Source: a virus
UHGV virus genome: UHGV-0136707
Length of the DNA: 42,322 nucleotides
Reading direction: 5' to 3' (one strand)
The position numbers and the translations under genes are program-made. The notes under the pieces were generated by a model, which saw nothing but the letters and a program-made list of their open reading frames with translations, was not told where the DNA came from and searched no databases. Shown piece by piece: positions 12,597 through 23,641 of this stretch; position 1 is the first letter of the stretch; each line of letters begins with the position of its first letter.

Positions 12597-13248
12597 GCTT
12601 TTCAGCCACCAGCGGCAATAAAGCCCTGGCCATCTTATGAACCAATAGTGCATCAATAATGCCAAGCGTATGCCCCGGCTTAATGTTTAATGCCGCCTCA
12701 AGGTGACACCTTTCCAAGCCACTTTTCTCGGCTTGTTTATGATGATCTGGCGTAATAACGTCGCCCAAAACACGGCTAATTCTTTCTCGTAATTGCTGGG
12801 TGCCAGCACACTTGATCGCTGTATCGTGGAGACGGTTAACCAGTTCGCGATAAACATGCGGCTTAATGCGGATACGTCCACCGGTGACGCCCTTTCCTGG
12901 CGCTGACACCGAACTATCCGGAATATCCGGATAGTTGCCAGCCTCGTAAGCTACCCGCAGCCAGTGCATGAATGTTTCAGTGGACACACAACCACAGTCC
13001 ACATCGATTTTTCCGCGTTGCTGTTCCAGCCACTGCTCAAAATTCAATCTACACGTATTACTTTCATGTTGCTCTTTTTGTCTCAAGGCCAGTACCTGTT
13101 GGGCCAGTTCCAGAACGATACCGGGTGACGCTAACCTCTCAAATTCCAATAAATAGTTTGTGTCAGGATGACAAGTAGCCTCGCCTGCAAAAAATACCAA
13201 TTGCTGTAAGTATGCTGTCGTTAGAGTAGTCATTTCTTTTTGCGCCAT
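12568..13248 (-). CDS. hypothetical protein
   Basis: 226-aa ORF in the same minus-strand run. No recognisable domain. Confidence 0.55.
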   Translation of the reverse strand: MAQKEMTTLTTAYLQQLVFFAGEATCHPDTNYLLEFERLASPGIVLELAQQVLALRQKEQHESNTCRLNFEQWLEQQRGKIDVDCGCVSTETFMHWLRVAYEAGNYPDIPDSSVSAPGKGVTGGRIRIKPHVYRELVNRLHDTAIKCAGTQQLRERISRVLGDVITPDHHKQAEKSGLERCHLEAALNIKPGHTLGIIDALLVHKMARALLPLVAEKHEADHANES

Positions 13249-13604
13249 TTCTTTTCACATTCCTTAGTCCATTTTTCAATGTTCATTTTGGCAATATCAG
13301 TCATTCCGTCACCCAAGAAATACTTTTTCCGGTATGTCTTGCACTTAAACCACACTACAACAGCCACCAGCCAGAAAATAAAAGGCCATACAGCAATGCC
13401 AACGACAGCCGCGATAAAGCCCAATAGCCATAAATGAAGCTCTCCAACTTCTGTTTCCGGCAATATTCTTAAAGAATTAAACAGCAGGGTGAACGAATGG
13501 TCGTATGCATTGGCAGTATAAGACATGCAATCCATATAATTAAAGTCATAGCCTGCGGCTGCCGCCCATAATGGGCGGTCAAGAAAATGTTTTAGTGTCA
13601 TCAT
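13230..13604 (-). CDS. hypothetical membrane protein
   Basis: 124-aa ORF with a hydrophobic segment (LWLLGFIAAVVGIAVWPFIFWLVAVVVWF) and a Lys-rich tail. Confidence 0.5.
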   Translation of the reverse strand: MMTLKHFLDRPLWAAAAGYDFNYMDCMSYTANAYDHSFTLLFNSLRILPETEVGELHLWLLGFIAAVVGIAVWPFIFWLVAVVVWFKCKTYRKKYFLGDGMTDIAKMNIEKWTKECEKKWRKKK

Positions 13605-13610
13605 ATAAAT

Positions 13611-14000
13611 TTAAGGTTCAGACCAGTTATCTTCAATAGCAATGCTTAATCTTTGTAGCCATTCTGCTAATTTCAGCATTGCTTCTCTTTCGCTTAAACC
13701 ACGAGGAAAATCATCAAGCGAAATTGTTGGCTTGAAGCCCCCGTAATTATCCATTTCAACTGTCAGATTTTGTTCCAGCACGGTATTTCTTACACGGCTA
13801 TTGTGCCGGAGCAAATATACTGAGCGTGATTTATTGGTTTTGTGGTCGAGCTGATATTCGGTAAGTATCATCTGGCTTTTGCCATGACTATTACCTCTCC
13901 ACATACTTACCTCACTTAATAAAACAACTCCATGCGTAGTTGATGATTTTTTCCCACGTAATATAAATCTGCACTCCGGCAGTAAAACCAAAGCCAACAA
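13611..14000 (-). CDS. hypothetical protein
   Basis: 129-aa ORF. Its N-terminal part overlaps an alternative 40-codon hydrophobic ORF (start near 14034), so the true start is uncertain. Confidence 0.4.
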   Translation of the reverse strand: MLALVLLPECRFILRGKKSSTTHGVVLLSEVSMWRGNSHGKSQMILTEYQLDHKTNKSRSVYLLRHNSRVRNTVLEQNLTVEMDNYGGFKPTISLDDFPRGLSEREAMLKLAEWLQRLSIAIEDNWSEP

Positions 14001-14082
14001 TTGCTGAAAAAATCAAAACATTTACTTTTGACATTATAAATTTTCTCTCGGTGTCGTAGGTGATAGCACCATAATTTCTAAT

Positions 14083-14334
14083 TTAGTGAGTTAGCAGTTC
14101 CATTTTTTGGATGATTTCCGCATGAGCATCATCGTTGTCAACACTTAACTCGTTTAATGCCTCTCGCACTACATCAACTTCTTCTGGTTGGAAGAAGTCA
14201 TCTCGGTAGTCACCAAATAGAACCGAAACAAGCCTGCCACCAGCAACATCAAGATTGGCGCTAACAGGTGGCTCTTTACCATCCTCAAATTCGACTACAA
14301 AAGTTAATTTCCCCATCGTTACCACCAGCGACAA
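14083..14334 (-). CDS. hypothetical acidic small protein
   Basis: 83-aa ORF in the operon run. Confidence 0.45.
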   Translation of the reverse strand: MSLVVTMGKLTFVVEFEDGKEPPVSANLDVAGGRLVSVLFGDYRDDFFQPEEVDVVREALNELSVDNDDAHAEIIQKMELLTH

Positions 14335-14398
14335 ATTGAATACAAACCCAGCGCTGCCGCCATCACAATTCCTACCGTGGTGAATGCTTCAGGCCAGC

Positions 14399-21483: not shown

Positions 21484-22091
21484 TCTTTAAGAGTCATCTG
21501 CGGAATACCTCCCATTTTCCCGCATGAAACAACGTCAATCTGTTCACGCGCAGACTGGAATAACAAAGGCAGGTGACTTAGATTTTTTGGCGTGCCGCCG
21601 GAGTGAACGCGTGGTTCTTGTGTAGCATCAACGCCCACCAGGGCTACATGTTTGAATCCGATATGGAAGGCCAGGTTCAGAGCACCATATGCACTATTGC
21701 CGCTGGCAATTTCATTCTCATCTTCGCAAAGGCCGAAATGTGCGGACCAGCGCCATGCCCACCACTCGGGAGAATTCGTATTTTTTGGCTCCGTGCCGCG
21801 TTCAGCCACACGACGGAAGCACAGAACGCCATCTATGACTTCACGTTCTTTAACATCGGGTAGTGCCATGCAATAACAAACACCACGGCGACGGCGGCCA
21901 CGACCAACGCGCCGCATATTGTCTGGCGATGGATCAAGTGTGAAAAAATAAGAAGCGCGGTTAAGCCAGTCGATGGCCCCATTGACCGCTATAATCGGCA
22001 CTCCGCGCGGCGCAACAAAGTTTGCGGCGCTTGGGCCACTGCCGACGATAATAACGCGATCACTGCCTCTAAATTTATTCTTGGGAAACAT
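21465..22091 (-). CDS. MptE/DUF115-like protein (paralog 1)
   Basis: 208-aa ORF with N-terminal IVGSGPS motif. Overlaps its paralog by ~100 nt. Confidence 0.6.
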
Positions 22092-22651
22092 TGAATTGCA
22101 CTGCTCCTACTTGCATTCAAAATATGTAAATCTGCGTGTTTTTTGCGGGTATCCAGGAACTGCTGTTGCCATTTTGAAATAGACACCTGCGTTGGATTCC
22201 GTAGTGCTTGAGGATGCGCGCCATGCCAATGAAGGCCGTTTTGCAGAGAACAGTCATAGCCGACTAATACAACTACTTCAGCCCCTGATTCAGCCGCCAG
22301 ACTGATAGCCTGCGCGCCGCTATTTACCCCTTCCGCCGGTCCACAATATCGCCTGTACTCCAACGAAAATGATTTCGCCGCCGCCAGGTTGGCTGTCACT
22401 TTGCGGAACCTCCCTCCCGGTATGGTGGAACCGTATTGCTTCCACCATGACAAATCACCGGCGTATAAGGCATAAATGTCATCGAACATCTGCCAGGAAT
22501 TGTTAACCGCGATGATTGAACAGCCAGTTTTTTCTATAGCAGCACAGTCCTCACGAGTGAGTGACGGACCGCTACCGACACAAAAAACAGTCCTAGTCGC
22601 CCTGGGTGGTATGTTCATTCTCAGCTGCAAATTCAGCCTCCAGGCGAGCAT
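21989..22651 (-). CDS. MptE/DUF115-like protein (paralog 2)
   Basis: 220-aa ORF with N-terminal CVGSGPSL motif. Confidence 0.6.
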   Translation of the reverse strand: MLAWRLNLQLRMNIPPRATRTVFCVGSGPSLTREDCAAIEKTGCSIIAVNNSWQMFDDIYALYAGDLSWWKQYGSTIPGGRFRKVTANLAAAKSFSLEYRRYCGPAEGVNSGAQAISLAAESGAEVVVLVGYDCSLQNGLHWHGAHPQALRNPTQVSISKWQQQFLDTRKKHADLHILNASRSSAIQCFPRINLEAVIALLSSAVAQAPQTLLRRAECRL

Positions 22652-22814
22652 TCATTTCAGCGATTACAGGGTCCACTACAGCATCTGTTTCCTGTTCATT
22701 ACGCGGCATGACCGATGCCAGCGACTCATAATTAACCTTGGATGACACGATTACTCTCCCGATGTTGATGTGCACTACCATAAAGAGACAATATGCACTA
22801 ATTAATTTATTATT

Positions 22815-23393
22815 TTAAGCAGCATACAACCACTTATCGCCGTTCAATACATGCTCAATAACCTCACCCTTTTTAAGGCTTATGTATTCCAGGATGGCGG
22901 TAATCGCTTGTTCTGCACCATACGCAAGAACAACGTAGTAACCTTCCTCTCTAAGCCTGCGCATCCAGGCAATCTGCTCTTTCGTCGGGGCTTTACCATT
23001 TGGTTCTTTAAGCTCAATTCGCATGCCGTGATAAATACCGCATGCTTTATCGAGACTCATGTCCGGATAACCTTTTTTCTGCCCTTCAGCCTTCATTTTC
23101 CCGGCGGTTGCTTTTGAACGCTTCCCTCCGTTAGGCGTTGCATGCAACAGCTCATAAATTTCAGGGTAATTGCGCTCGAAGTAATCAAAAATGAAAACCT
23201 GTTCGTAGTGCTCGCAATTTCCTACTCGCAGATCAGGATTTTTTGCCAGTGCTGCAAGCGCCTTCGCATGTGGCGAAACTTCTTTTACCGGGGCAAGTGA
23301 TAAGAACGGATCCTTTTTGGGCTTTGGCTTAGCCCATCCTTTCTTCCTGCGCTTACTGAAAGCCAGATACTCTTGCTCAGTAAAGCGCAACAC
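22815..23393 (-). CDS. VRR-NUC-domain nuclease-like protein
   Basis: 192-aa ORF. The C-terminal half has a PD-(D/E)xK-like pattern (KGYPDM...ELKEPNGKAPTKEQ). Confidence 0.6.
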   Translation of the reverse strand: MLRFTEQEYLAFSKRRKKGWAKPKPKKDPFLSLAPVKEVSPHAKALAALAKNPDLRVGNCEHYEQVFIFDYFERNYPEIYELLHATPNGGKRSKATAGKMKAEGQKKGYPDMSLDKACGIYHGMRIELKEPNGKAPTKEQIAWMRRLREEGYYVVLAYGAEQAITAILEYISLKKGEVIEHVLNGDKWLYAA

Positions 23394-23395
23394 AA

Positions 23396-23641
23396 TCAGT
23401 CAAATCCTGCCGGTCGCATGCCATATTTACGCTGTTTTGCGGCCTGCTCTTCCCTGTGCCATTGCGCACACTCAGCGTCACAATAGATGCCTGATTCAAT
23501 CGGTTCATTGCAGTAACGACACTTCCCTGTAAATACCTGACTCACGACCTGTGCCTGCTTTCTGATGTTATCTATGGCCATGTCTTTGAGAGCTTCTAAC
23601 TGATTCATGCTCAGCTCTGCATCATCAACACGTTCTGCCAA
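23396..23641 (-). CDS. DksA/TraR-type C4 zinc-finger protein
   Basis: 81-aa ORF with CRYCNEPIESGIYCDAEC four-Cys finger. Confidence 0.65.
   Translation of the reverse strand: MAERVDDAELSMNQLEALKDMAIDNIRKQAQVVSQVFTGKCRYCNEPIESGIYCDAECAQWHREEQAAKQRKYGMRPAGFD

Follow-up and report, generated by a model that had tools for sequence, protein, structure and literature searches.

C1-controlled genes of the pmgL-to-pmgT region in a P1-like phage-plasmid, with a candidate glycosyltransferase module and an ASCH gene apparently truncated in reference P1

The virus genome UHGV-0136707 is represented here by a stretch of 42 322 nucleotides (the window), in which positions 13230–23641 carry a series of genes that corresponds to the pmgL-to-pmgT region of phage P1. 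In a megablast search of this segment against phage genomes, only P1-like phages (Punavirus) covered most of the query; the top Punavirus records reached 80–83% coverage at 97.4% identity, and reference P1 covered the right 63% alone (window 17059–23641) at 98.1% identity. A blastn comparison of the whole window with P1 (NC_005856) gave 98.3% DNA identity over 17059–29641. To the left of the segment the window also holds pacA, lpa, pdcB, doc/phd, humD and lxr, which, together with the P1-wide match, identify the window as part of a P1-like phage-plasmid. The sequence and annotation of the block are already known from P1, P7 and many P1-like plasmids. Its right part (17949–23641) consists of orthologues of P1 pmgL, M, N, O, P, ppp, pmgQ, R, S and pap (gp085–gp094) in the same gene order, and the proteins translated from these P1-homologous coordinates share 92–100% of their amino acids with the ten P1 proteins. 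The right half is nearly invariant among P1-like elements, and pmgR and pmgS belong to the 21 genes that a survey of P1-like phage-plasmids found to be extremely conserved (PMC9603915). The genes and regulatory sites of this part are, from right to left:

23699–23715, plus strand: C1 operator O26/Op82, between pmgL and tail gene 26 in their divergent promoter region, just outside the segment
23396–23641, minus strand: pmgL, 81 amino acids (aa), 80/81 identical to P1 PmgL, with cysteines C41, C44, C54 and C58
22815–23393, minus strand: pmgM, a VRR-NUC nuclease of the PD-(D/E)xK family, 176/192 aa identical to P1 PmgM
22792–22808, plus strand: C1 operator Oppp/Op83, upstream of the pmgN–pmgQ operon, annotated in P1
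22593–22748, minus strand: pmgN, 51 aa, 51/51 identical to P1 PmgN, first gene of the operon
21989–22651, minus strand: pmgO, 220/220 aa identical to P1 PmgO, a GT42/MptE-like (sialyltransferase-like) candidate
21465–22091, minus strand: pmgP, 205/208 aa identical to P1 PmgP, a paralogue of pmgO with a GSGPS motif
20791–21483, minus strand: ppp, 227/230 aa identical to P1 Ppp, a lambda NinI/PrpA-type metallophosphoesterase
20093–20794, minus strand: pmgQ, 228/233 aa identical to P1 PmgQ, a GT8-like (GT-A, DxD) candidate
20075–20091, minus strand: C1 operator OpmgRa (Op86a), identical to P1
within 20026–20091: promoter PpmgR, between OpmgRb and OpmgRa
20026–20042, plus strand: C1 operator OpmgRb (Op86b), identical to P1
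19793–20011, minus strand: pmgR, 72/72 aa identical to P1 PmgR, in P1 an essential head-tail joining gene (PMC9024508)
18529–19791, minus strand: pmgS, coiled-coil protein of 420 aa, 419/420 identical to P1 PmgS
18480–18509, minus strand: terminator-like hairpin between the pmgS stop and the pap start, an 11-bp stem with a T-run, by consensus match only
17949–18455, minus strand: pap, 168 aa, 166/168 identical to P1 Pap, a stand-alone HAD phosphatase
17933–17949, minus strand: C1 operator OpmgT/Op88, identical to P1, heading the leftward operon

Between 13230 and 23641 every long open reading frame (ORF) is on the minus strand, as an earlier sequence-only reading of this DNA had stated; the single run that it described is, in fact, at least four transcription units, because C1 operators lie inside the block. 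The two sites at 17933–17949 and 20026–20091, then called operator-like, are genuine P1 C1 operators, identical to the annotated P1 sites, and two further operators of the region, Op83 and Op82, were absent from that reading. With up to three mismatches allowed, the operator consensus ATTGCTCTAATAAATTT had 12 matches in the window against 0.2 expected by chance. Op88 differs from the consensus at one position and O26/Op82 at two, the sequence of the latter being that of the annotated P1 operator. Op82, Op83, Op86a/b and Op88 all occupy P1-homologous positions; four are identical to P1 and Op83 is one base off (TATGCACTAATTAATTT in the window, CATGCACTAATTAATTT in P1). Gene order and operator positions are thus as in pmgL–pmgT of P1 (NC_005856, gp085–gp095) and the hdm/sht/hea operons of P7, whereas P7 carries different cargo and P1 lacks 12950–17058, so that the ASCH gene (241 aa) and the gene for a 226-aa protein are complete in the window but not in P1. 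In the plasmid prophage these units would be silent under C1 and loss of C1 would switch them on; from C1 control, expression is expected at the start of lytic growth. A GC-rich 10-bp hairpin at 17878–17900, in the leader between Op88 and the start of the ASCH gene, was scored by the terminator scan on the plus strand. The promoter scan was uninformative, since it returned fewer sites than in shuffled sequence; an Rfam scan of 11000–24200 gave no match at E ≤ 0.1, and base composition revealed no sharp island boundary.

The sequence-only reading had grouped the block around enzymes that could act on nucleic acids and passed over pmgO, pmgP, ppp and pmgQ, four mid-sized enzyme genes. The theme fails for this central operon, as PmgO, PmgP and PmgQ are glycosyltransferase-like and have relatives in phage head modules. 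A profile built from 47 diverse PmgO relatives matched the Campylobacter Cst-II sialyltransferases (GT42) at E 1.8e-4, in an alignment that spans the N-terminal GxGPSL and the central SG...G.D motifs. As single sequences, PmgO and PmgP gave weak MptE-like (DUF115) Pfam matches, below the cut-off, and PmgP fell into PHROGs 2111 and 4603; some longer relatives of PmgO carry fused Ig-like or TOD1/MUCI70 glycosyltransferase-like domains. A profile of 49 PmgQ relatives matched GT8 enzymes, namely Skp1 alpha-galactosyltransferase (E 3e-7, profile positions 31–196), glycogenin (E 1e-4) and a streptococcal GT8 of the GlyE type, and the DLD at PmgQ residue 79 is invariant in the family. Pfam models found no match among the 49 family members, and the polyubiquitin matches of the PmgQ profile were discarded as repeat-summing artefacts (i-Evalue ∼600 per stretch). 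Ppp matched Pfam Metallophos (E 1e-15) and PHROG 246, and scored 279 and 240 bits with the NCBIfam PrpA/PrpB models, below their curated cut-offs of 326 and 332.

Analysis of gene neighbourhoods showed that O, P and Q keep their order outside P1-like phages. The lambdoid Citrobacter phage phiNP has the three genes, but not ppp, between terS and the lysis genes; in the 111-kb phage EP_H11 the ppp position is taken by a GT1-like gene (sub-threshold Pfam match, E 2.2e-5). In both phages a PmgP-like gene follows the PmgO-like gene; the O/P/Q-like genes span 3822–5645 of the phiNP locus (L016) and 4486–7181 of the EP_H11 locus (L019). The ppp gene is found within the module in P1-like phages only and is absent from O-P-Q modules elsewhere. 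PmgO- and/or PmgQ-like genes have the major capsid gene on one side and connector, head-closure or tail-completion genes on the other in six of the ten informative metagenomic or genomic contexts, and methyltransferase genes often adjoin them in such head-module contexts. In Pseudomonas phage D3 the PmgO homologue is orf7 (4597–5055 of locus L018), which is flanked by the genes for the major head protein and the head-tail adaptor. PAJU2 and Klebsiella phage Eowyn have homologues with the annotation 'structural protein'.

The location of these genes among head and connector genes of unrelated phages suggests virion glycosylation. In such a scheme, pmgN-O-P-ppp-Q would be a portable glycosylation module, in which the gene of a lambda-type phosphatase is inserted among those of one GT8-like and two GT42/MptE-like enzymes. 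PmgO, PmgP and PmgQ would decorate virion proteins with a glycan that the phage can do without, and we regard this as the best explanation of the operon. We propose, as a possibility only, that the three-enzyme module decorates P1 virion proteins in this manner; because the enzymes are GT42-like, the donor might be a CMP-activated nonulosonic or Kdo-type sugar. Virion glycosylation would reconcile the old head-morphogenesis labels (pmg in P1, hdm in P7) with viable knockouts. In the mycobacteriophages, where virion glycosylation is non-essential, as well as at D3 orf7, glycosyltransferase genes adjoin capsid and connector genes, often with methyltransferases, just as in the PmgO/PmgQ contexts. 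Phage-encoded glycosylation of mycobacteriophage virions is attributed to Freeman et al. (2023) as cited in PMC12691614, and the O-P-Q genes of P1 are similarly non-essential for plaque formation (PMC10695390). P1 differs from those systems in that its enzymes are GT42/MptE-like and GT8-like, and its genes lie outside the head operon behind a C1 operator; for P1 and D3 alike, virion glycosylation is predicted from gene neighbourhoods. As far as the sequence comparisons go, the conserved three-gene O-P-Q module appears to be new in this work.

Several points weigh against virion glycosylation. Some PmgQ and PmgO homologues are found in lysis cassettes or between int and tail-fibre genes, positions that would also fit modification of the cell surface, i.e. 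of lipopolysaccharide (LPS). The GT8 family also includes LPS-core transferases. The O-P-Q genes of P1 are under an early C1-controlled promoter, with no obvious late promoter, and a glycan on P1 virions is unreported, the paper on the P1 virion proteome mentioning none. The main rival to virion glycosylation is modification of LPS or another envelope glycan: PmgO, PmgP and PmgQ would act during lytic growth on the LPS core or another surface glycan of the host, and not on virion proteins, and would hide the receptor of P1, thereby sparing progeny from loss on debris or excluding superinfecting phages. The LPS core is the structure to which P1 adsorbs, PmgQ is related to the very family that supplies LPS-core glycosyltransferases, and one PmgQ homologue, between int and the tail fibres, has the classic position of a conversion gene, to which the lysis-cassette homologues of PmgQ and PmgO can be added. 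This explanation nevertheless seems unlikely to us, as most contexts lie inside head-connector modules, the enzymes of solved structure closest to PmgQ (Skp1 transferase, glycogenin and GlyE-type GT8) glycosylate proteins, and P1 represses O-P-Q in the lysogen, where these genes therefore cannot serve for conversion. Hypermodification of DNA by PmgO, PmgP and PmgQ was set aside, given that their nearest solved relatives act on proteins or glycans and that P1 DNA is not known to be glycosylated.

The operon behind Op88 differs between the window and reference P1, and three features define the difference:

17029–17754, minus strand: intact pmgT-type ASCH gene, 241 aa, ASCH fold with an insertion of ∼80 residues
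12950–17058: segment of 4.1 kb missing from reference P1, delimited by blastn and junction sequences, with its end-points inside two genes
12568–13248, minus strand: gene for a 226-aa protein, just left of the segment 13230–23641, whose C-terminal half is the 'PmgU' of P1

The P1 sequence joins window position 12949 straight to 17059 (junction at ∼85183 of NC_005856). Residues 1–232 of the ASCH protein are identical to P1 PmgT, which then has 77 unrelated residues that correspond to another reading frame of the window's 226-aa gene, and which is without the last β-strand of the ASCH barrel (VWVIEFERIQ). Residues 1–101 of P1 PmgU, in turn, match residues 114–214 of the 226-aa protein with 93% identity. 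This junction indicates that P1 is a 4.1-kb deletion variant, in which the ASCH protein has been cut short and joined to an out-of-frame tail to give PmgT, and in which pmgU is what is left of the other gene. The P1-type junction was present at full length in five PLSDB plasmids, against 44 with the intact right junction; in counts of protein clusters, the 242-aa form accounted for 302 and 392 member sequences and the fused forms for 20 and 1. As PmgT and PmgU of P1 are remnants on this evidence, the published pmgT and pmgU phenotypes are silent on the intact genes. The statement that most genes of the block have no described function in P1 holds in part, but is inapplicable to 12950–17058, which P1 does not have.

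The ASCH assignment, made previously from the sequence, was borne out by the ASCH β-barrel fold and by the octapeptide GxKxx(E/T)xR, which reads G22-R-K24-T-Q-T27-R-R29 and whose residues are either invariant or conserved to at least 90% among 26 homologues. YqfB represents the 'GKTR' subtype, and Lys and Thr are needed for catalysis in YqfB-type enzymes (10.64898/2026.02.27.708502). Escherichia coli YqfB, an ASCH N4-acetylcytidine amidohydrolase (PDB 9kyf; the YqfB sequence used for comparison agrees with the PDB), shares with the window protein the octapeptide GRKTxTxR, including the catalytic Lys and Thr, and has a similar last strand (VIEFE in VWVIEFERIQ of the window protein, VIEFK in FYVIEFKCL of YqfB). 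The window protein differs from YqfB in its length (241 versus 103 aa), in the ∼80-residue low-confidence insertion and in its extra C-terminal helices and, whereas equivalents of Lys and Thr were found, Glu74 of YqfB has no established counterpart. Searches with the 241-aa protein gave only noise in Pfam at E ≤ 10, with no Pfam ASCH match, nothing in NCBIfam and E ≥ 0.66 in phmmer/hmmsearch against the PDB; an hhalign comparison of the family with YqfB, which aligned a 20-residue motif only (probability 7%), was rejected. The first gene of the Op88 operon would then encode an ASCH protein whose catalytic motif is that of the N4-acylcytidine amidohydrolases. Both the deletion in P1 and the YqfB-type motif of the intact protein appear to be new in this work.

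Beyond the ASCH gene, the operon runs on into 12950–17058, which falls within region 8 (pmgT to humD), one of the eight regions that are hypervariable among P1-like phage-plasmids (PMC9603915). The cargo that follows Op88 in this slot differs between P1, P7, 813R1, MH422554 and pMTY1887. P7 has upf86.8 to upf89.5, JL22 has an adenine methyltransferase (adsM), and further plasmids have eaa, DUF4752, a PAPS-reductase-family gene or a small ASCH gene. In the window the slot contains:

16798–17019, minus strand: homologue of lambda Orf63 (DUF1382; PF07131, E 2e-29, 101.9 bits against a cut-off of 27)
16586–16801, minus strand: 71-aa protein, possibly winged-helix (PHROG 9799; winged-helix Pfam matches sub-threshold)
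15949–16593, minus strand: 214-aa protein of the P7 Upf87.6 family, with a C-terminal CxxC...C..C (PHROG 2457, E 1e-119)
15272–15961, minus strand: Ead/Ea22-family protein (PF13935, E 4.5e-20)
14976–15275, minus strand: DUF7739 protein (PF24881, E 1.2e-21), 99.4% DNA identity to phage CUS-3
14399–14974, minus strand: Ea22-like protein, Ead_Ea22 (PF13935, E 1e-29) with a C-terminal DUF551 (PF04448, E 6e-11)
13230–14334, minus strand: three or four small genes (PHROGs 2638, 1258 and 3876, none with an assigned function)
within 14083–14334: 77-aa protein
within 13611–14000: 97-aa protein
13230–13604, minus strand: 124-aa protein with a hydrophobic stretch

Much of this cassette is of lambdoid character. 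Positions 14405–15493 are 99.4% identical to the distal part of the early-left operon of the P22-like phage CUS-3, beside attR, and show the same 99.4% identity to phiv205-1; 14406–16604 are 97.7% identical to Stx2c phages. The gene at 15949–16593, which matched no Pfam family, shows 98% DNA identity to P7. The identity with CUS-3 and phiv205-1 points to recent exchange between lambdoid and P1-like phages. Orf63 (DUF1382) and Ea22-type genes are typical of the exo-xis region of lambda, Stx (Shiga toxin) and P22-like phages, which, like the cassette, lies at the distal end of an immediate-early repressor-controlled operon, and the combination of Ead_Ea22 and DUF551 at 14399–14974 is the architecture of the V2 variant of Stx-phage Ea22. 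The cassette differs from exo-xis in belonging to a P1-type myovirus plasmid prophage under C1/Op88 instead of CI/PL, in having no recognized orf60a, orf61 or orf73 homologue, and in being combined with an ASCH gene and P7 Upf87.6-family genes. In lambda and Phi24B, Orf63 is pro-lytic and Ea22 is pro-lysogenic (PMC7093339, PMC8614690). By analogy, the likeliest role of the cassette is in tuning the developmental decision or early host physiology; the Op88 operon would thus extend into a hypervariable slot of lambda exo-xis-type genes that adjust the choice between lysis and lysogeny or early host functions. Host modulation, as suggested by the sequence-only reading, is plausible for these Orf63/DUF1382 and Ea22 homologues, and that reading is partly supported on this point.

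The left edge at 13230 proved arbitrary, as the minus-strand run extends to a terminator-like hairpin at 11435–11461. Left of 13230 it comprises the 226-aa gene (12568–13248), two paralogous small genes and a TOPRIM-like gene of 183 codons. The paralogues are adjacent minus-strand ORFs (12300–12665 and 11995–12300) that share a C-terminal W..F.C.DH..W.DELD.SFPYF.E..CP.CR motif and stand in place of P1 pmgV/upfM-O. The 183-aa ORF, on the minus strand within 11435–12025, has by eye a TOPRIM-like E...DxD pattern and matched nothing in Pfam; the hairpin that follows it is the true end of the run.

To the right of Op88, the pmgR-pmgS(-pap) unit would combine the head-tail joining protein PmgR with PmgS, a coiled-coil protein with a possible helix-hairpin-helix (HhH) DNA-binding end, and Pap, a PNKP-type 3'-phosphatase. 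Owing to the strong terminator-like hairpin at 18480–18509, pap may lack co-transcription with pmgR-pmgS. PmgS is the 420-aa coiled-coil protein of the earlier reading, and its AlphaFold model (predicted local distance difference test, pLDDT, 75) consists of a long helical hairpin (residues 41–232), an α/β domain and an (HhH)2-like C-terminal end, whose best Foldseek matches, none of them significant, are N-terminal (HhH)2 domains of RAD51C/Rad51. Its homologues form 29 clusters, nearly all on P1-sized contigs, so that it appears confined to P1-like elements, and the most distant cluster carries PF14520 HHH_5. Two PmgS-like clusters (P0122 and P0136) are longer and carry a DNA cytosine methyltransferase (PF00145) or a metallophosphoesterase (PF00149) domain; these fusions may be gene-call or assembly artefacts. 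The matches of PmgS to LmuB/SMC-like proteins in PADLOC and to SMC/Rad50 in NCBIfam were rejected as coiled-coil noise. Pap accounts for the predicted HAD phosphatase with a PNK-phosphatase-like DxDGT: it matched PF25109 HAD_PNKP with 45.9 bits (cut-off 27.6; E 8e-12) and PHROG 415, and its HAD motif I is DIDGT at residues 19–23. It shares the HAD_PNKP family and DxDGT with the phosphatase domain of T4-type polynucleotide kinase-phosphatase but, at 168 aa, is a phosphatase domain alone, with neither the P-loop 5'-kinase domain of the bifunctional T4-type Pnkp nor a ligase partner nearby.

The rightmost unit, pmgL-pmgM, would encode a small zinc-binding protein and a VRR-NUC nuclease, the latter being likeliest to trim or resolve branched DNA. 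The VRR-NUC nuclease foreseen from the sequence is PmgM: the match to the solved VRR-NUC structure PDB 4qbl (E 8.8e-17) covers the whole catalytic core, and the GYPDM and RIELK motifs (PD...ExK) line up with the same residues of 4qbl. PmgM also fell into PHROG 5702 'Holliday junction resolvase' (E 4.5e-27), and its Pfam VRR_NUC score of 21.2 bits is below the cut-off of 23.8. With a catalytic core and PD...ExK like those of viral and bacterial VRR-NUC Holliday-junction resolvases such as 4qbl, PmgM is probably a branched-DNA or Holliday-junction resolvase; it differs from 4qbl in an extra basic N-terminal region of ∼75 residues. The zinc finger that had been called TraR/DksA-like is PmgL. It matched PHROG 54 ('DksA-like zinc-finger protein', E 1.7e-13), with cysteines spaced CxxC-x9-CxxxC and an acidic N-terminus (ERVDDAE), whereas Pfam (including zf-dskA_traR) gave no match up to E 10, BLASTP gave no alignment with F-plasmid TraR, and a PDB sequence search returned chance PHD-finger matches and no TraR or DksA chain. 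The TraR/DksA assignment of PmgL is hence weakly supported, and filing it as TraR was rejected.

Most P1 homologues of these genes are dispensable in the laboratory (PMC9024508, PMC10695390), and nearly all P1 genes of the block have been knocked out; the term accessory does not fit pmgR, which is needed for morphogenesis. Of 29 single-gene knockouts of P1 genes without an assigned function, 24 showed neither a plaquing defect nor a change in antirestriction (Gonzales et al., PMC9024508), and a CRISPR interference (CRISPRi) map scored pmgL, M, O, P, ppp, Q, S, pap, T, U and V as non-essential (PMC10695390). pmgR is one of the five essential genes in that set; its deletion results in unjoined heads and tails and is complemented in trans (PMC9024508). 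pmgN (22593–22748) is essential by published CRISPRi, yet it can be deleted without loss of viability; a polar effect of the knockdown on the genes that follow, possibly reaching pmgR, may account for this.

We consider it likely that the region is the pmgL-to-pmgT early region of a P1-like phage-plasmid, with at least four C1-controlled minus-strand units and the unit-by-unit roles proposed above. Some of these roles stand on less firm ground: the functions of PmgL, PmgN and most cassette genes are guesses, Foldseek found nothing at E ≤ 0.001 for the PmgS model, and the ASCH model has a pLDDT of 64, i.e. only moderate confidence.

The sequence-only reading had named counter-defence alongside host modulation. 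According to the counter-defence explanation, the block would be mainly an island that neutralizes host immunity, with nuclease, phosphatase and ASCH activities directed at nucleic acids or signalling nucleotides. Such a function would be consistent with early repressor-controlled expression, with genes that can be spared in the laboratory, with the membership of Pap and Ppp in families that include RNA/DNA end-healing enzymes, and with the hypervariable slot after Op88, where the adenine methyltransferase of JL22 (adsM) or the PAPS-reductase-family gene of other relatives is typical anti-restriction-type cargo. However, knocking out these genes in P1 left antirestriction unchanged in the few hosts used (PMC9024508); at the level of names, no protein belonged to an anti-defence family in Pfam, PHROGs or NCBIfam; and PADLOC, which covers defence and not anti-defence, gave coiled-coil noise only. 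The near-invariance of the right half among P1-like elements is unlike fast-turnover anti-defence loci, the central operon is glycosyltransferase-like and pmgR is morphogenetic. No direct support for counter-defence was found; for the block as a whole it is speculation, and improbable in our judgement.

We give least credence to end healing, in which Pap as a 3'-phosphatase and Ppp as a possible 2',3'-cyclic phosphodiesterase would repair RNA or DNA termini that anticodon nucleases of the host or other ribonucleases have broken, so that a host ligase could join them. Pap is indeed a member of the PNKP phosphatases, Ppp has a weak match to the bacterial Pnkp phosphoesterase domain (TIGR04075, E 9e-11), and Keppetipola and Shuman reportedly found in 2007 that the lambda phosphatase has cyclic phosphodiesterase activity; this is very unlikely all the same, since no kinase or ligase partner was recognized among the proteins scanned (Pfam, PHROGs, NCBIfam), pap and ppp are in different operons, Ppp is close to lambda NinI and to the E. 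coli protein phosphatases PrpA/PrpB, and pap and ppp knockouts are neutral in K-12 (PMC10695390).

The block itself is thus ordinary, and what may be useful to P1 workers are by-products of its analysis: the apparent deletion in reference P1, the YqfB-like motif of the ASCH protein and the candidate O-P-Q module. The motif of N4-acetylcytidine amidohydrolases in the ASCH protein gives a concrete assay. The O-P-Q module turns a 20-year-old label, 'putative morphogenetic function', into a hypothesis testable by mass spectrometry; if virion glycosylation is true, P1 and D3-like phages would be the first well-studied phages of Gram-negative bacteria with enzymatically glycosylated particles.

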